Below, in pieces: positions 4,572 through 24,674 of a stretch of 46,871 nucleotides of DNA. The notes below the pieces were generated by a model. That model did not search any database, was not told where the DNA came from, and saw only the letters and a program-made list of their open reading frames with translations. The stretch comes from Candidatus Methylomirabilota bacterium (GTDB lineage Bacteria > Methylomirabilota > Methylomirabilia > Methylomirabilales > JACRGL01): NCBI GenBank assembly GCA_016212365.1, contig JACRGL010000111.1, positions 1-46,871 of the forward strand, written 5' to 3'. The position numbers and the translations under genes were made by a program. The number at the start of each line of letters is the position of its first letter. The stretch's first letter is position 1.

Positions 4572-6197
4572 CTAACTCCCACTCAAGATAGGATAAGCGA
4601 TGCTGGTTATGTGGGAGTTTATCCGCTTCAGGTTGGTAAGCACATCCAGGTGGATCTCACTGGTGTCAATGGACTCCCTGTAGCCATTGTGGAGTCTCTG
4701 GATGTGGTTCTGACGGAAGCGGCGCTCTGTCTGGCTTATCTCCGGCTTGGCCTGGAGGACCTTCTGGGCCAGTTGGGGGTCGTTGGAGGCAAAGGCTGAG
4801 ATGGCCAGCTCCAGGTTCTGGGCCACCTTGTTATGGAGCTCGAGAATCTCCCTCATCCCCGGCTCCGAGAAGTGGACCCCTTTATAGATCTTCTTCTTGG
4901 CCAGCTCCATCAGGTTCTTGTCTACTATGTCCCCCATGTTCTCCAGGTTGTTGACAAAGGAAAGGATAGAGAGCTCCCTCTGGGACTGCTCCTCGGTGAG
5001 GGACTGCTGGGAGAGCTTAGTGAGGTATCGCTTGATCTCCCGGTCCAGGGTATCCACCTGATCGTCCTTCTTGACGATGTATTCCAAAAGGTCCTGGTCG
5101 TCGGTCTCAAGGACATCGAGGGTCTTTTTGAACATCTCTGATACCAGATCCGCCATGCGGAGGGCCTCACGAGTGGCCTGGCCAAGGGCCAGGGCCGGGG
5201 TGTCCAGGACGCGATGGTCGAGATACCTGGACTTGAAGACCCCTTCTGCCTCCCGGTCCTCGGGCACTAAAGCGGTGACAAATCTCGCCAGGGGCCGGGA
5301 GAAGGGGAGGAAGAGGACGGTGATCCCCACGTTGAAGAAGGTATGGGCATTGGCGATCTGGCGGGGGATGTCGGAGCTGGTCAAGGAGACCAGGTGCGCG
5401 AAGGGACCAACGAAGGGGAGGAAGATAGCAACCCCCAACACCTTGAAGAGGATATGGGCAATGGCCACCCTCTTTGCCTCGGCAGTGGTTCCTATGCTGG
5501 AGGCCAGGGCGGTAGCGCAGGTCCCGATGTTTGCCCCAAAGATGATGGGAATGGCAGAGGAAAGGGGGATGAGGCCCTGGAGGGCCAGGGTAAGGGCGAG
5601 CCCGAGGGTGGCCGCTGAGCTATGGACCAAAGCTGTGAATACGGCAGCGACGATGATCCCTAGTAAGGGCTGCTCCCCTAAGGAAAGGATCATGGCCCTG
5701 AAGATCTCATTCCCCCGCAGGGGAACCATGGCATCGGACATCACCTTCATGGCAAAGAATATGAAGCCAAAGCCCAGGACGGCCTCGCCTATATATTTGA
5801 AGATCTTTCGCTTAGAGGCAAAGACCATGGAAAAGCCGATCCCGATGAGGAGAAGGGCGTAGTCAAAGACCCTGAAGGCGATGAGCTGGACGGTGAAGGT
5901 AGTCCCAATGTCCGCCCCAAGGATCACCCCTATGGTCTGGGTAAGGTCCATGAGGCCAGAGCTTACAAAGCCCACCAGCATTACCGTGGTGGCAGAGCTG
6001 GACTGAATAACGGCGGTGATGAAGGCCCCTGCTATTACGCCCAGGAGGCGATTGTAGGTGAGGGAGGAGAGGATCTGGCGCATCCTTCCGCCTGCGGCGA
6101 GTTGTAAGCCCTCACCCGCCAATCGCATCCCGTATAATAGGAGGGCCATTCCCCCGAAGAGGGCAAAGATCATGTAGTTGGTCATCGGTTTATGCAC
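4572..6197 (-). CDS. Na/Pi cotransporter family protein with a C-terminal PhoU-like domain
   Basis: 541 aa, with a GTG start at 6197 (alternative ATG at 6185, MTNYMIF). It has the duplicated polytopic membrane core (QSSSATTVMLVGF ... HSSAATLGLALTL) typical of NptA/YjbB-type transporters, plus a helical PhoU-like tail. Confidence 0.92.
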   Translation of the reverse strand: MHKPMTNYMIFALFGGMALLLYGMRLAGEGLQLAAGGRMRQILSSLTYNRLLGVIAGAFITAVIQSSSATTVMLVGFVSSGLMDLTQTIGVILGADIGTTFTVQLIAFRVFDYALLLIGIGFSMVFASKRKIFKYIGEAVLGFGFIFFAMKVMSDAMVPLRGNEIFRAMILSLGEQPLLGIIVAAVFTALVHSSAATLGLALTLALQGLIPLSSAIPIIFGANIGTCATALASSIGTTAEAKRVAIAHILFKVLGVAIFLPFVGPFAHLVSLTSSDIPRQIANAHTFFNVGITVLFLPFSRPLARFVTALVPEDREAEGVFKSRYLDHRVLDTPALALGQATREALRMADLVSEMFKKTLDVLETDDQDLLEYIVKKDDQVDTLDREIKRYLTKLSQQSLTEEQSQRELSILSFVNNLENMGDIVDKNLMELAKKKIYKGVHFSEPGMREILELHNKVAQNLELAISAFASNDPQLAQKVLQAKPEISQTERRFRQNHIQRLHNGYRESIDTSEIHLDVLTNLKRINSHITSIAYPILSGS

Positions 6198-6512: not shown

Positions 6513-6587
6513 TGATGCGGTGATGGACGTTTCTATTTTGGATATCCCCTATTGTCCTTGACGTTAGGAGGTATAAGGCGGCTGCTA

Positions 6588-6818
6588 CTACCGTAGACCA
6601 AAAGACGGCAAGGGATGGATTATAGCCCCTGGGTGGAGGGGGACGGTGGAGACCTCCACCGTCAATTTAGGGATATTTACCCCGGGGTACTTGGCCAGAA
6701 CCTTTTTAATATCCTCATCGCTGAGCCCAAGGATGCGGATGGGGGTGATTGATCGCGGATGGGATTGCCCTAGTAGCCCTAATATTATCGACACTACCCC
6801 CCTTAATACTCCTTTCAT
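6588..6818 (-). CDS. Hypothetical protein (76 aa), no recognisable family
   Basis: Open frame only. It sits in an AT-richer spacer between the FxsA-like fragment and the CoA-transferase gene, and no motif was recognised. Confidence 0.25.
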   Translation of the reverse strand: MKGVLRGVVSIILGLLGQSHPRSITPIRILGLSDEDIKKVLAKYPGVNIPKLTVEVSTVPLHPGAIIHPLPSFGLR

Positions 6819-6985
6819 TTACAGCACCTCCTTTAGGGAAATTATTTGATAGCGTTGAAAAAGGGTTATCCAGCCTCTATTTCATTAAATTCATATCACA
6901 AAAATATAACTGTGTCTCTCATTTTTGGATATTTCATAGGGACTGTGGTATAAGAAATCAAATTTCAACTCGAAGGGGGCCAAAG

Positions 6986-9171: not shown

Positions 9172-9229
9172 TTATCCCTTAATAATGCCCAGTCATTACA
9201 ACATTCTAAGATGACAAAGGCTATTCCGC

Positions 9230-9511
9230 CTACTTCCCCTCCAGGGCGGCGATGATCTCACGGCAGAAGGCCGGAAGATCGGTGGGCACCCGGGAGGTTA
9301 TCAGATTCCCGTCCCGGACCACCTCCTTATCCACGTAGAGGGCGCCAGCGTTGACCAAATCGTCCTTGATGGACTGAAAGCAGGTAGCGTTTTTCCCCTT
9401 CACGATCCCTGCCGAACACAGCATCCAGCCGGCATGGCAGATGGCGGCTATCACCTTTCCCTGCTCGAAGGCCTCCCTCACCAGCTTCACCATAGCAGGG
9501 TAGCGCCGCAT
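9230..9511 (-). pseudogene. DJ-1/PfpI family gene lacking its N-terminal half (5'-truncated)
   Basis: The 93 aa correspond only to the C-terminal half of a PfpI-type protein (...GKVIAAICHAGWMLCSAGIVKGKNATCF...VVRDGNLITSRVPTDLPAF). The open frame runs straight back to the TAA (9527-9529) that terminates the upstream repressor gene. Confidence 0.75.
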
Positions 9512-9526
9512 GAGGTCAGGAATGAA

Positions 9527-10180
9527 TTACCTTGGCTTGATCCAGACTATCTTATGGATGACCTCCACCTCCTCTTTCTTAAAGGTCAGGGGCTCATACA
9601 AAGGATTGAAGGACTGGAGGGTCACCAAGTCCCCATAATTGAAAATGACCTTTCGCACCCATACCCGGTCATCCCGATGGCGTACTACTGCAAGGTCATG
9701 GGACTTGGCTACCTCTGCCGGAGAGGCAATCACTAAATCCCCCTCGAATAGCCTATGTATCATGGAATCCCCTTCTATCTTTAAGGCATAAGCGAATACA
9801 TCTCTGAGATTGGGGTGCCTTTCAATGAAACCCTCCGCATGGGCATGGCTTTTGCCGTAGCCAGCCATAGATGCCGGGAGGATTGGGATAGGCTCCAGGC
9901 CTGGCCATTCCAGTTTCTCTAGCTGGTTCTTGGGGATTACAATCAGACGCTCCCTCTCCTCGGGAGACATCCTCTCCTGCTGGGCCAGAAAGATGAGCCG
10001 GTTTTCGTCCAGATCCAATGTCCTGGCCAACTCCTTAGTAACCTTTAGGGATGGTATCCTAAAACTGTTCTCTATGGCCGTCACATAGGTAGAAGACACC
10101 CCCACCATTCTGCTCAATTCCGCCTGGGTCAAGGATTTACGCCGCCTGGCCCCCTTCACTAGCTCTCCTAACCTCTCCAT
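9527..10180 (-). CDS. CI/LexA-like repressor: XRE-family HTH plus S24 peptidase domain
   Basis: 217 aa. N-terminal HTH is LTQAELSRMVGVSSTYVTAIENSFRIPS. The C-terminal S24 domain has the Ser motif IEGDSMIHRLFEGDLV and the Lys motif RVWVRKVIF, with a possible Ala-Gly cleavage site in SMAGYG. GC content is lower than in the flanking genes. Confidence 0.9.
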   Translation of the reverse strand: MERLGELVKGARRRKSLTQAELSRMVGVSSTYVTAIENSFRIPSLKVTKELARTLDLDENRLIFLAQQERMSPEERERLIVIPKNQLEKLEWPGLEPIPILPASMAGYGKSHAHAEGFIERHPNLRDVFAYALKIEGDSMIHRLFEGDLVIASPAEVAKSHDLAVVRHRDDRVWVRKVIFNYGDLVTLQSFNPLYEPLTFKKEEVEVIHKIVWIKPR

Positions 10181-10211
10181 CCCTCATCCCCCCTTTCCTT
10201 GCACTGGAACC

Positions 10212-10240
10212 TTTTTATAAAAAAATGGGCATGGTGTCAA
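10212..10240 (-). promoter_or_regulatory. Candidate promoter of the repressor gene
   Basis: On the minus strand, TTGACA (10240-10235), a 16-17-nt spacer, then ATAAAA/TAAAAA (10219-10212). It is about 30 nt upstream of the repressor ATG and back-to-back with the plus-strand promoter. Confidence 0.45.
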
Positions 10241-10254
10241 GAAGAATCTTTACA
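10235..10254. promoter_or_regulatory. Imperfect 20-bp palindrome, candidate operator
   Basis: TGTCAAGAAGAATCTTTACA: the half-sites TGTCAAGAA and TGTAAAGAT match at 7 of 9 positions. It overlaps the -35 of the minus-strand promoter, and a further TTTACA lies at 10276-10281 next to the -35 of the plus-strand promoter. Confidence 0.3.
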
Positions 10255-10269
10255 AATTAGAGTTTTTTC

Positions 10270-10298
10270 TTGACATTTACACACAAGTGAGTTATATT
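10270..10298 (+). promoter_or_regulatory. Strong sigma70-type promoter driving the small-ORF operon
   Basis: TTGACA at 10270-10275, an exact 17-nt spacer, then TATATT at 10293-10298. It is divergent from the repressor gene. Confidence 0.65.
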
Positions 10299-10319
10299 CC
10301 AACTGGAGAAACGAAAAGC

Positions 10320-10412
10320 ATGGCTAACTTAAAAATTGCCAAAGACGGAATAGCCCAAGAAGAAGGCTTCTCTTCACTTATAGATGGGGAGACCGATGGA
10401 AAATTTAAATAA
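10320..10412 (+). CDS. Possible 30-aa leader ORF (MANLKIAKDGIAQEEGFSSLIDGETDGKFK)
   Basis: This is the first ATG after the promoter, with GGAGA 10 nt upstream. It overlaps the next ORF in another frame, and no similarity was recognised. Confidence 0.2.
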   Translation: MANLKIAKDGIAQEEGFSSLIDGETDGKFK

Positions 10413-10722
10413 AAGCAAAAAAACCTTTACAATTGAGCTTGATGGGGGAACACTTAGGGTGCTGAAAGATGGCGTTGAAGAACCGCAAGTCGCTTGCTTT
10501 TTTGGTTACATGAGAAAAGACGGCGATATAATGGTGCTGACGCCTTGGCCCATAGGGCATGCTCTTGCCCCCATTATGTCGGCAATATTCCTCAAAGAAC
10601 CCGCCCTCTTGCATTTGCTCTTTGATTTTTTTCTCGATTTGGCCAGGGAGGATTTTGAGCGCTGGAGAGCCGAGAAATTAAAGCAGAAAAGCGGCGTTGG
10701 GGGTTATGGTTTCTACTTCTAA
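10396..10722 (+). CDS. Hypothetical protein (108 aa), no recognisable family
   Basis: Open frame with an ATG at 10396 preceded by GGGGAG; the track ORF starts at 10384. The region is low in GC. The C-terminus is an aromatic/glycine tail, GVGGYGFYF. Confidence 0.5.
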   Translation: MENLNKSKKTFTIELDGGTLRVLKDGVEEPQVACFFGYMRKDGDIMVLTPWPIGHALAPIMSAIFLKEPALLHLLFDFFLDLAREDFERWRAEKLKQKSGVGGYGFYF

Positions 10723-10728
10723 GCTATA

Positions 10729-11097
10729 ATGAGACGGACCTTTCATGAGCTCTTAAAAAAGGAGATCCCCTATCCCACCCACCTCTACCTGGTTAAAGGG
10801 AGGCCGGAGCATAGGGAGTGCGGGAGGCTATGCCTCTTTAGAAATCGCCAGGGCAGTTGGTACTTCGAGATATACCTCTGGCTCCCCAATATCTATGAAT
10901 TTACTAAAAAGGTGGGAATCCCTCTAAGGGTGGGGATTAAATTTGTGCTCTGGCACGAGATTTACCACGCCAAACTCTTCCATAATGGAGGATTTCTTAT
11001 TCCTCTTAATTGCTACCCAGAGCAGTATGCCAAAGCTGCGGCTCTAAACCACGTCCCTCTTGAGTACCGAGACAAGGTGACCCAGTGGAGCTTCTAA
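10729..11097 (+). CDS. Small HExxH protein (122 aa), putative minimal zinc metallopeptidase (SprT/ImmA-like pattern)
   Basis: It starts 4 nt after the previous ORF's stop codon. The motif is GIKFVLWHEIYHAKLFHNGG (HExxH plus a downstream His), preceded by ECGRLCLFRNRQGSWYFEIYL, which resembles the strand-rich region upstream of the SprT-type active-site helix. Confidence 0.5.
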   Translation: MRRTFHELLKKEIPYPTHLYLVKGRPEHRECGRLCLFRNRQGSWYFEIYLWLPNIYEFTKKVGIPLRVGIKFVLWHEIYHAKLFHNGGFLIPLNCYPEQYAKAAALNHVPLEYRDKVTQWSF

Positions 11098-11188
11098 GGC
11101 AGGATATAGCCTCTCGCCTCAAGGCCCTCGCCCTTGGGAATCGCCCTCGCTCCCGTCCCCATTTAGTTCCCCAACGCCCTGAGGCCCT

Positions 11189-11983
11189 CTATGGCCTTAC
11201 AGGATGAGAGGCCAGAAGGCCCTGGAGGAGGTCAGGGCGGTCAGTAACGATCCCTTCCACCCCTAGGTCTATAAGGCGCCTCATCTCATGAATATCATTC
11301 ACTGTCCAGAGGTAGAGGCCAAGCCTCTCCTTATGGCAGGACTCAACGTCGGCCTTTGTAAGGAGGGAGTGCTCTAGGCATACGGCGTTGGCTCTAGCCC
11401 CTTGAGCTACGGTAACCAGGTCCCGGACACGTCGGGCCAATAAGACCCCAATCCTGGTCCGAAGCTCGAGCTCTTTCACCCGCAAAAGGGCCTGCCGGTC
11501 AAAGGAGGTCACCAGGGCCTGGTCAACAAAGGAGTGCCTTTTAAGCAGCTCCACTAGCCTCTCTTCCAGGCCAGGATAGGTATCAGGGCCGGCCTTGACC
11601 TCGATGTTGAGCTGGGCCTTCCCTTTCACCAGCTCGATGGCCTCCTCCAGGGTTGGGATCCTGGTCCCGGCGAAGGAAGAGGAGAACCAGAAGCCAGCAT
11701 CCAGAGCCTTGAGCTCCCGGAGGCTCTTCTTCCCTACCCTGCCCCGCCCGTCGGTGGTGCGCCCCAGGGTGGCGTCGTGAATGACCACCAGTTCCCCATC
11801 CCTGCTCATGTGGACATCGAGCTCGATCATGTCCACGCCGAGCTCCAGGGCCCGGCTAAAGGCGGGGAGCGTATTCTCAGGGGCCTGGACCGAGGCCCCC
11901 CTATGGGCTATATTGAGCACCTGTATACCATCCGCATCACCTTCATAACCGGCGGATTTAGGACTGGTAAGTGCCTTCGCCAT
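11189..11983 (-). CDS. Glycerophosphodiester phosphodiesterase (GDPD family)
   Basis: 264 aa, with IAHRGASVQAPENTLPAFSRALELGVDMIELDVHMSRDGELVVIHDATLGRTTDG, the canonical GDPD N-terminal catalytic motifs. The start overlaps the comM stop (TAATG). Confidence 0.92.
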   Translation of the reverse strand: MAKALTSPKSAGYEGDADGIQVLNIAHRGASVQAPENTLPAFSRALELGVDMIELDVHMSRDGELVVIHDATLGRTTDGRGRVGKKSLRELKALDAGFWFSSSFAGTRIPTLEEAIELVKGKAQLNIEVKAGPDTYPGLEERLVELLKRHSFVDQALVTSFDRQALLRVKELELRTRIGVLLARRVRDLVTVAQGARANAVCLEHSLLTKADVESCHKERLGLYLWTVNDIHEMRRLIDLGVEGIVTDRPDLLQGLLASHPVRP

Positions 11984-23265: not shown

Positions 23266-23847
23266 CAGGGGGAAACCCTCCAAAATAGTATAAATTGCCC
23301 CTTTAGGGGAAAGGTCACTCCGCATGAGGTCCACCCGCTCCACCTGCATACCGCCCAAATATTCGGCCTTGAGGGTACTCAAGCATTCAGCCAGCCCCTC
23401 CCGATTCCTGGGAGAGCGCACCCGACCTAACGTGAGATGGGGGGTATAGGACCGCCCCTCTCTGGGGAAGCCCCGCAGACCTAGGGCCGTTTCCAACCCC
23501 TCTTGAAGCCTCTGGAGTTCCAAGGCCCCATCTTGGATGCCCACCCAGACGACCCTCGGCGCTCTAGAGTTAGGGAAGGCCCCCAGGCCAGAGAGGGATA
23601 AAATAAACGGGGGCATGGTTCGGGCAATCCCCTGTAAGACCACCTTTACCGTATCCAGGCGTTTTGCCGACACCTCCCCCAAGAACTTGAGGGTAAGATG
23701 CAAATTCTCGGGCCTGACCCAGCTTACATCAGCGGCGGGTGCCCTGAGGACCTCTTGAAGCTGGGAGAGGGGCTGCCTGAGCCCCTCAGTCAAGTTGACG
23801 GCGATGAAGGAGCGAATGGGCTCGGATTCTTTACTCAAGGTCTTCAC
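23248..23847 (-). CDS. thpR: RNA 2',3'-cyclic phosphodiesterase (2H phosphoesterase, ThpR/LigT)
   Basis: 199 aa, with the two HxT motifs HLTLKFLGEV and HLTLGRV. Confidence 0.9.
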   Translation of the reverse strand: MKTLSKESEPIRSFIAVNLTEGLRQPLSQLQEVLRAPAADVSWVRPENLHLTLKFLGEVSAKRLDTVKVVLQGIARTMPPFILSLSGLGAFPNSRAPRVVWVGIQDGALELQRLQEGLETALGLRGFPREGRSYTPHLTLGRVRSPRNREGLAECLSTLKAEYLGGMQVERVDLMRSDLSPKGAIYTILEGFPLGRPET

Positions 23848-24674
23848 TGCCTGGACTTCCTCTCTTCCCTTTCCCGGATTCGCGCTTTTACATGCTGGAA
23901 ATAATCACTGTCTTGGATTTGGCCCTCCCGGGGTGGGAGGTGCGCGATGTCTCCCCTCACCTTGGCAATCCGCTCAGAGGTGGGGGGATGGGAGGAGAAA
24001 GACTTCTCCAGAAGGTCGGGTTCCCGCTTCTGGAGCGCCAGGAGCTTCTGAAAAAAGGCGATCATAGCGCCAGGGTCATAACCAGACCGGTATAGGTAAC
24101 GGACCCCCAACTCATCGGCTTCAGACTCGTCGGCCCGGCTATAGGCCAAAAGCCCGGCAGTGCCAAAAAGGTCAGCCACTAGAGCCTTCCAGAAGGCGGG
24201 GTTCGGACCCAACAGGACTGTCGCCAATAAGTCATAGCCATACATCATAGAGAGGCGGGCAGCCCCATGGCGGCCCACCACATGGCCGATCTCATGGCCT
24301 ATGACCCCGGCCAGCTCCGCCTCATTGTCTGAGGCAAGGATGAGCCCTTTATTGACGTATATGTATCCACCTGGAAGGGCAAAGGCATTGACTTCCTTGC
24401 TATCAACCACCTGGAAGCGGTAGCGGACATCCCTGCGGTCGGAGATTTGCGCCAGGCGCCCTCCAAGTTCGCTGATGTACTCTACCACTCCTGGGTCCCG
24501 ATACATAGGGTACTTCCGCTCCACCTCTCTGGCGATTTGCCTTCCCATCTCGACCTCCTCAGCACTCGATATGAGGATGAGCTGGGACCTCCCTGTTGGG
24601 GACGTGGCGCAGGCAGAGAGAAGTCCAAGAAAGAGAACAACTAGAAACGATCTGTTTATGACCTTCCGTCTCAA
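23844..24674 (-). CDS. M48 family zinc metallopeptidase, lipoprotein
   Basis: 276 aa with a TTG start. Lipobox LLSAC, zinc motif HEIGHVVGRH, downstream ESEADELG. Confidence 0.9.
   Translation of the reverse strand: MRRKVINRSFLVVLFLGLLSACATSPTGRSQLILISSAEEVEMGRQIAREVERKYPMYRDPGVVEYISELGGRLAQISDRRDVRYRFQVVDSKEVNAFALPGGYIYVNKGLILASDNEAELAGVIGHEIGHVVGRHGAARLSMMYGYDLLATVLLGPNPAFWKALVADLFGTAGLLAYSRADESEADELGVRYLYRSGYDPGAMIAFFQKLLALQKREPDLLEKSFSSHPPTSERIAKVRGDIAHLPPREGQIQDSDYFQHVKARIREREERKSRQ

Follow-up and report, generated by a model that had tools for sequence, protein, structure and literature searches.

A gene for a cI/LexA-like repressor and two small orphan genes, which we call orfA and orfB, lie back to back on a contig of about 47 kb (the window, by which we mean the whole stretch of DNA analysed) from a metagenome-assembled genome of the candidate division NC10 (Methylomirabilota). 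The repressor gene occupies 9527-10180 on the minus strand and is separated by a control region of 215 bp (10181-10395, 39.5% GC) from orfA (10396-10722) and orfB (10729-11097), both on the plus strand; the exact products of the latter two are entered at NCBI as hypothetical proteins (HY998_04970 and HY998_04975). The locus was compared with related NC10 contigs, namely a JGI contig (L001), a Logan contig (L002) and two further contigs (L003 and L004). It is a unit of an already described kind, an S24 repressor with genes divergent from it, whose cargo is orphan here. The original prediction, made on 10320-11188, had called three open reading frames (ORFs), one with a GVGGYGFYF tail and one with an HExxH motif, facing a divergent repressor with its own S24 domain; all of these are found where they had been placed.

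The orfA reading frame runs from 10384 to 10722 and gives 112 amino acids (aa) from its first ATG; the likely start is the ATG at 10396, which stands behind a GGGGAG Shine-Dalgarno sequence and yields a product of 108 aa, the length annotated by NCBI. This protein is acidic (isoelectric point (pI) of about 6.1) and is predicted to form beta hairpins in its N-terminal part and a long helix in its C-terminal part; its aromatic tail is GYGFYF, the C-terminus being GVGGYGFYF. The middle part is hydrophobic or amphipathic, as had been proposed, with a best 19-residue Kyte-Doolittle mean of 1.44 that stays below a transmembrane score. The product of orfB has 122 aa and is basic (pI 9.0-9.5), and its gene starts 6 nt after the orfA stop codon (TAA), which upholds the close spacing reported earlier and corrects its value of 4 nt. 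Neither protein has a segment of transmembrane-grade hydropathy, and a Pfam scan found no LysM or other domain in either.

A word-indexed search of 5.8 billion protein clusters retrieved exactly one full-length relative of each cargo protein, both on L001, and a third orfA was found on L002, which ends inside this gene. OrfA is 70% identical to its L001 homologue and 72% identical to that of L002, with a synonymous divergence (dS) of 0.95 and a ratio of nonsynonymous to synonymous divergence (dN/dS) of 0.27 between the window and L001. For orfB, which is 74% identical to its L001 homologue, the proportions of nonsynonymous and synonymous differences (pN and pS) are 0.157 and 0.78, the synonymous sites being saturated. 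Frame and length of both genes are kept between the two contigs, and there are no frameshifts. These comparisons indicate that orfA and orfB are real genes under purifying selection; a lack of coding signal, which would have spoken against the original prediction, was not what we found. The remaining ORF (30 aa, 10320-10412, plus strand) had been suggested as a leader peptide. Its lack of conservation led us to reject it as a gene: in L001 the reading frame from this ATG is closed by a stop after 5 codons, and the leader has another length. It matches no family and is most likely just the 5' untranslated leader. Rfam and tRNA scans of the region returned nothing, and no terminator-like or unusually stable structure was found between orfB and the adjacent GDPD gene.

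The repressor matches the Pfam families HTH_3 and Peptidase_S24 above their gathering scores (expectation values (E) of 9.5e-10 and 2.1e-15), and consists of an XRE helix-turn-helix (HTH) domain (aa 1-65), a linker and an S24 autopeptidase domain. Ala106-Gly107 in the linker is the predicted cleavage site, and together with Ser139 (in GDSM) and Lys177 (in VRKV) it is invariant in 4 orthologues. In the alignment with LexA (3k2z), Ser139 falls on the KGESM serine and Lys177, the VRK lysine, on the LexA lysine; the alignment of UmuD' with the repressor starts at residue 103-106. The protein has every sequence feature of a RecA-responsive S24 autopeptidase. When metagenomes were scanned with the repressor, a single true orthologue came up; the other matches were canonical LexA genes, which are uninformative.

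Two TTGACA -35 boxes stand back to back in the control region, that of the repressor gene at 10240-10235 on the minus strand and that of orfA-orfB at 10270-10275, and an inverted repeat pairs 10235-10252 with 10258-10275. The promoter scan placed a sigma-70 type promoter for orfA-orfB at 10270-10298 on the plus strand (TTGACA-17-TATATT, 11/12 matches). The block TTGACAT.TAC..ACAAGTGAGTTAT is kept in the window, L001, L002 and L003, in surroundings that are only about 60% (55-70%) identical. Wholly within the promoter spacer lies a 14-bp palindrome (10279-10292), ACTCAC-AA-GTGAGT, which reads ACACACAAGTGAGT in the window; in a five-locus alignment it is perfect (6+2+6) in L002 and has one mismatch in the window, L001 and L003. 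No second site within 3 mismatches was found in the 47-kb window. From its position and conservation we infer that this palindrome is the operator bound by the repressor.

Our preferred reading, which we hold with moderate confidence, is that of a self-contained chromosomal DNA-damage-inducible S24-repressor unit with a two-gene orphan cargo, in which orfB is a small metal-dependent hydrolase or peptidase partnered by orfA. By binding as a dimer to the 14-bp palindrome within the spacer of the strong orfA-orfB promoter (10270-10298), the repressor would keep the divergent bicistron silent. RecA on single-stranded DNA would then stimulate self-cleavage at Ala106-Gly107, which would release the DNA-binding domain and allow both genes to be expressed. 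OrfB would act through H76, E77 and H80, with H85, H108 or E112 as third ligand, and orfA would serve as its partner, be it substrate, inhibitor or adaptor. A two-protein unit is supported by the 6-nt gap, by the pairing of an acidic with a basic protein and by the conservation of the two genes together in L001, orfA being present in L002 as well. The specific assignment of orfB as a small metal-dependent hydrolase that acts with orfA is one we make with low confidence. An SOS-controlled effector module, as originally proposed, is the best reading of this architecture, because selected, real ORFs of low GC lie divergent from a repressor of the RecA-responsive type; the defence or abortive-infection role attached to that proposal is supported by no tested feature.

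The chromosomal setting of the unit is stable. L001 is syntenic with the window and carries in order a CoA-transferase gene, a nirDL-like AsnC-type gene, the XRE-S24 repressor gene, orfA, orfB, GDPD and, further on, comM. In L001, L002, L003 and L004 alike, the repressor gene is found at this chromosomal site, upstream of the nirDL-like gene. Since this position is kept in contigs whose AsnC-like gene is only approximately 75% identical to that of the window (L003 and L004), the repressor is a long-resident chromosomal gene and not a recent insertion. The cargo, in turn, is exchangeable. In L003 the same promoter and palindrome are followed by an unrelated ORF of 69 aa and then by GDPD; tblastn found no trace of orfA or orfB in this contig, and the 69-aa ORF has no similarity to orfA. 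We also observed that L004 (1-117) and L003 (3024-3132) encode an identical repressor protein, that upstream of a point about 65 nt ahead of the start codon their DNA diverges completely, and that the L004 upstream region holds a different inverted repeat, ATCACACG...CGTGAT, where the contig ends. This sequence suggests that L004 is a third promoter/cargo variant.

Between the window and L001, the CoA-transferase, comM and CBS proteins are 96-97% identical (dS of approximately 0.09-0.13), the AsnC-like protein 91% (dS 0.22), the repressor 79% (dS 0.50) and GDPD 61% (dS 1.2). At the nucleotide level, the part of the repressor gene that encodes the S24 domain and linker is 87-98% identical to L001 and L002; identity drops sharply to 55-72% at about 9980, is 70-78% in the block up to the comM stop at 11983, and returns to 94.7% beyond it, the flanks being 94.5% identical. 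The divergent block (approximately 9980-11983) thus comprises the repressor HTH domain, the control region, orfA, orfB and GDPD. The HTH domain is 60-65% identical to that of all relatives, as against 82-92% for the rest of the protein, and the GDPD of the window shares 61% identity with those of L001 and L003, as against 79% between the latter two. From this drop in identity and the divergence of HTH domain and GDPD we conclude that homologous recombination brought the HTH domain, operator, orfA, orfB and GDPD into this genome jointly, as a divergent allele, in the manner of lambdoid immunity exchange. Base composition is also distinctive. At 48.2% GC (whole window 56.7%), 10320-11188 ranks among the lowest 3% of segments of equal size; the minimum, 44.3%, is reached by the segment of that size that starts at 10161. 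The contrast with the GDPD gene (59.5%) bears out the low-GC block seen originally against a GDPD of about 60%, and low GC is common to both alleles. The horizontally acquired island postulated from it is right insofar as the allele at about 9980-11983 is divergent and foreign; the slot itself is chromosomal and syntenic in four NC10 contigs.

Some of these features would also suit the immunity region of a decaying prophage or integrative element, in which the repressor is a leftover cI and orfA and orfB are leftover early (cro-side) genes without host function. The best family of the repressor is PHROG 4, transcriptional repressor (2.2e-24), and it has full-length matches to phage CI repressors at 23-29% identity; the low GC would fit, as would a slot that is rearranged, with a DJ-1 fragment adjoining it and neighbours that differ in L001 and L003. 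However, no integrase, att repeat, tRNA or phage gene was found nearby, IMG/VR holds no match for orfA, orfB or the repressor, and a tblastn search of orfB against GenBank phages and plasmids returned nothing, so that homologues confined to intact prophages, a possibility raised originally, are not what is seen: none lies in any phage or viral contig. Furthermore, the repressor keeps its position in contigs with flanks about 75% identical and is as conserved there as the flanks are, and purifying selection on both ORFs is clear even though synonymous divergence is saturated. We consider a prophage remnant unlikely.

The edges of the unit have been reworked. Between the repressor gene and the nirDL-like gene of the window lies a 93-aa ORF (9230-9511, minus strand; region 9174-9532) that matches DJ-1/PfpI in its C-terminal half only (E=5e-31, profile positions 78-164 of 165). 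As the corresponding spacer is only 44-48 nt in L001 (2730-2775), L002 (1279-1324) and L003 (3786-3832), this ORF is a truncated gene fragment inserted in the lineage of the window, and it marks where the left side of the module was rearranged. In the relatives, a fused nirD/nirL-like gene (siroheme decarboxylase type, AsnC_trans_reg2) lies downstream of the repressor gene on the same strand after a gap of only 44-45 nt, so that transcription of the damage repressor gene might read through into a gene of haem d1/haem biosynthesis. At the other edge, the window does not have the Kinase-PPPase (PF03618) gene that L001 and L003 carry between comM and GDPD, and its GDPD start codon overlaps the comM stop at 11983. 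In L001, a 69-bp copy (90% identical) of the comM 3' end is found at 6059-6127, beside the start of the Kinase-PPPase gene. Between this copy and the genuine end of comM (7958 onward) lies an insert of approximately 1.8 kb, with genes for a 50-aa HTH_3 protein and a DUF5647/DUF7718 pair and with two tiny ORFs; the arrangement resembles an insertion that duplicated its target at the 3' end of comM.

Residues 74-85 of orfB read LWHEIYHAKLFH, with HEIYH at 76-80 and a further histidine at H85. The HExxH zinc-site motif, H76-E77-x-x-H80 (codons 10954-10968), is present and invariant in both orfB members, and falls in an invariant block of 21 residues, PLRVGIKFVLWHEIYHAKLFH (P65-H85; 10921-10983, plus strand), in which the window and L001 differ by 0 replacements and by synonymous changes in 11/21 codons. 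HExxH alone is weak evidence for a peptidase, and a six-frame translation of the window holds 5 copies, 3/5 of them in ORFs that overlap longer ORFs of the opposite strand. A damage-induced checkpoint or regulatory protein like YneA, ChiZ or DivS, or a co-repressor like DdrR, would account for orfB with the HExxH as an incidental feature. These four proteins are small and lineage-specific and are encoded divergently from a LexA-like gene, so that the gene arrangement is the same, with small, lineage-restricted and rapidly replaced genes, and HExxH does arise by chance at an appreciable rate. Yet orfA and orfB have no transmembrane segment or LysM domain, and the motif sits in the most strongly conserved block of orfB; we regard such a protein as very unlikely here.

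Family searches did not place the cargo proteins. Neither orfA nor orfB has a match in Pfam, NCBIfam, PHROGs or PADLOC at E<=1, which includes all toxin, antitoxin and defence models in these collections, and Pfam stays silent for orfB and its L001 homologue even at E<=10. Family scans of orfA, orfB and the 30-aa leader gave only marginal hits to Lit (E=0.16, from the motif alone) and DUF6845 (E=0.14). Among PDB sequences no match to orfB was found at E<=10, PDB profiles gave nothing meaningful for either protein, and the GTDB species genomes contain no match for orfB or the repressor. A full phmmer search of orfB against 1.8 billion representatives returned only orfB itself and P0005, which we judged spurious as a homologue: it has 552 aa of degenerate repeats (VPYHIWHVTYHSQLYSGSS...) and is matched to the motif region nine times. 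P0005 is almost certainly a translated repeat, and His-rich repeats are able to mimic the orfB motif. AlphaFold2 models computed from two-sequence alignments were unusable, with a mean predicted local distance difference test score (pLDDT) of 39.7 for orfB (25-30 around the motif) and 47.8 for orfA, and Foldseek searches with both returned noise only, all orfB matches being unrelated and at E>0.2.

By eye, orfB can be aligned to the YgjP/DUF45 signature HELAHLKEKEH...F..L....P.Y, and hhalign reproduces this alignment, setting orfB IKFVLWHEIYHAKL-FH against YgjP LRMIVVHELAHLKEKEH. The P values are 0.086 against E. coli YgjP and 0.044 against a six-sequence YgjP profile (21 columns), for alignments that span 21-26 columns and cover the motif surroundings only. 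When columns were shuffled with the motif preserved, 31 of the 200 shuffles scored at least as high as the real profile comparison, and kinship of orfB with YgjP/DUF45 was thus set aside as no better than chance given the motif. With no family matches, one relative and unusable models, the mini-zincin call for orfB draws only on the HExxH motif and its position in the most constrained part of the protein, and the likeness to SprT or ImmA-IrrE peptidases put forward originally finds nothing beyond that motif. A bolder proposal, which we think rather unlikely, is that orfB founds a new zincin family of about 120 aa that is invisible to current profiles. Controlled by a cI-like repressor, it would be produced solely in response to DNA damage, for instance as a protease that, together with orfA, acts on a target in DNA repair, DNA-protein crosslinks or the cell cycle; the general principle exemplified by the locus would then be that S24 sensor domains stay in place and HTH, operator and cargo are swapped as cassettes.

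The proximity of an XRE repressor to a small HExxH protein recalls ImmR/ImmA, DdrO/IrrE and CapH/CapP, and the repressor HTH matches the PADLOC capH model at 9.3e-07. OrfB might on this account be an anti-repressor protease of the ImmA/IrrE/CapP type that cleaves the adjacent repressor, as positive feedback or as a second input. Against this, orfB matches no Peptidase_M78/COG2856 or CapP model (Pfam at E<=10, PADLOC); IrrE and CapP carry a sensor domain, which the 122 aa of orfB do not include; and the repressor has its own S24 cleavage machinery with catalytic residues intact. The genes are moreover divergent, and the protease would therefore be made only after derepression. Finally, L003 keeps the repressor and promoter without orfB, as judged by tblastn, so that the two are not constantly paired. 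This ImmA-like explanation is the weakest among the rivals, and we hold it to be highly improbable.

The acidic upstream and basic downstream proteins, encoded 6 nt apart, might alternatively form a toxin-antitoxin-like or abortive-infection pair, in which a toxic basic orfB enzyme is neutralised by acidic orfA and the system is fired by repressor cleavage. A hypervariable, exchangeable locus with strongly raised divergence is what defence islands show, and small HTH_3, DUF5647 and DUF7718 genes occur in the L001 neighbourhood. Even so, orfA and orfB match nothing in PADLOC, Pfam or NCBIfam, the alternative cargo of L003 is a single 69-aa ORF and no pair, the adjacent genes of the window are housekeeping genes, and no recognised defence genes are found among the neighbours. 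Type II toxin-antitoxin operons are normally autoregulated through the antitoxin and not by a separate S24 repressor, which also counts against such a pair. We deem it quite unlikely; no tested feature supports either a defence role or cleavage of the repressor by orfB, both envisaged in the original prediction, and PADLOC is silent for both ORFs.

Several points weigh against our preferred reading, a damage-inducible unit whose cargo includes a metal-dependent hydrolase. The model is a prediction from sequence. OrfB has no detectable similarity to any metallopeptidase family, its YgjP score does not exceed those of motif-preserving shuffles, and in its low-confidence AlphaFold model the motif lies outside any helix. 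RecA-independent cleavage occurs in some LexA-like proteins (IrvR, PMC7101444). Glu98, the sole candidate for an acidic third ligand at the usual distance, is an Asp in the homologue, and with only two full orfB sequences the conservation of the motif block is inseparable from general structural constraint. The candidate operator, in turn, is a single site deduced from four related sequences.

Bacteria of the NC10 group (Methylomirabilota) perform nitrite-dependent methane oxidation and are largely uncultured, and to our knowledge almost nothing is known of their stress responses for this reason. The locus offers a concrete candidate for a damage-inducible unit in NC10, with a predicted operator, promoter and cleavage site. 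It also provides a natural example of how such units evolve, the S24 sensor being retained and the DNA-binding domain, operator and cargo exchanged by recombination; most instructive are the mosaic swap that took in HTH domain, operator and cargo, and the occurrence of different cargo behind one promoter. Among approximately 15 billion predicted proteins, the cargo proteins have one relative. Should orfB turn out to be a metalloenzyme, a new minimal family would be defined by it; otherwise the case would caution against HExxH as a peptidase signature.

Elsewhere in the window, a 276-aa ORF on the minus strand (23844-24674) carries GVIGHEIGHVVGRHG, a motif context that we take to be typical of M48-type zinc peptidases, and may encode a conventional HExxH enzyme. 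Upstream of the CoA-transferase gene lies a stretch of low GC (36-47%, 6546-6922) for which L001 has no counterpart; it contains a 76-aa ORF on the minus strand (6588-6818).

Compared with known systems, orfB shares with minimal zincins (YgjP-like/DUF45, SprT-like and WLM) an HExxH that follows hydrophobic residues, a nearby downstream His and an N-terminal region of predicted strands and a helix; it differs in a spacing to the third His that is one residue shorter and in having no zinc ribbon or other DNA-binding module. The locus has in common with ImmR/ImmA, DdrO/IrrE and CapH/CapP an XRE repressor beside a small HExxH protein in a DNA-damage context, but here the genes are divergent and not co-transcribed, orfB falls outside the protease families of these systems, the repressor has its own S24 protease, and the related locus L003 is without orfB. 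With the SOS division inhibitors encoded divergently from lexA (YneA, ChiZ, DivS and SidA) it shares the arrangement, without their membrane anchor or LysM domain. The likeness to lambdoid cI, PrtR and AlpR extends to the combination of HTH_3 and Peptidase_S24, the Ala-Gly site, the Ser/Lys dyad and the divergent target promoter, and the N-terminal domain is apparently swapped together with the operators in the mosaic fashion of lambdoid immunity regions; by contrast, identity to phage CI is only 23-29%, no prophage, lysis or pyocin genes are attached, and the target genes here are unrelated orphans.

Known units of the S24 type include lexA-yneA, lexA-chiZ, umuDAb-ddrR, alpR-alpA and prtR-prtN. 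With regard to previously described chromosomal S24 units, the palindrome here is ACTCAC-AA-GTGAGT in place of their GTG-N11-CAC, and the cargo is a predicted two-gene operon; we claim no sequence relationship to them, and the likeness is one of features read from the DNA. These features are a cI-like repressor with conserved catalytic residues, a palindrome in the divergent promoter region, uncharacterised lineage-specific cargo, and different cargo behind related repressors.

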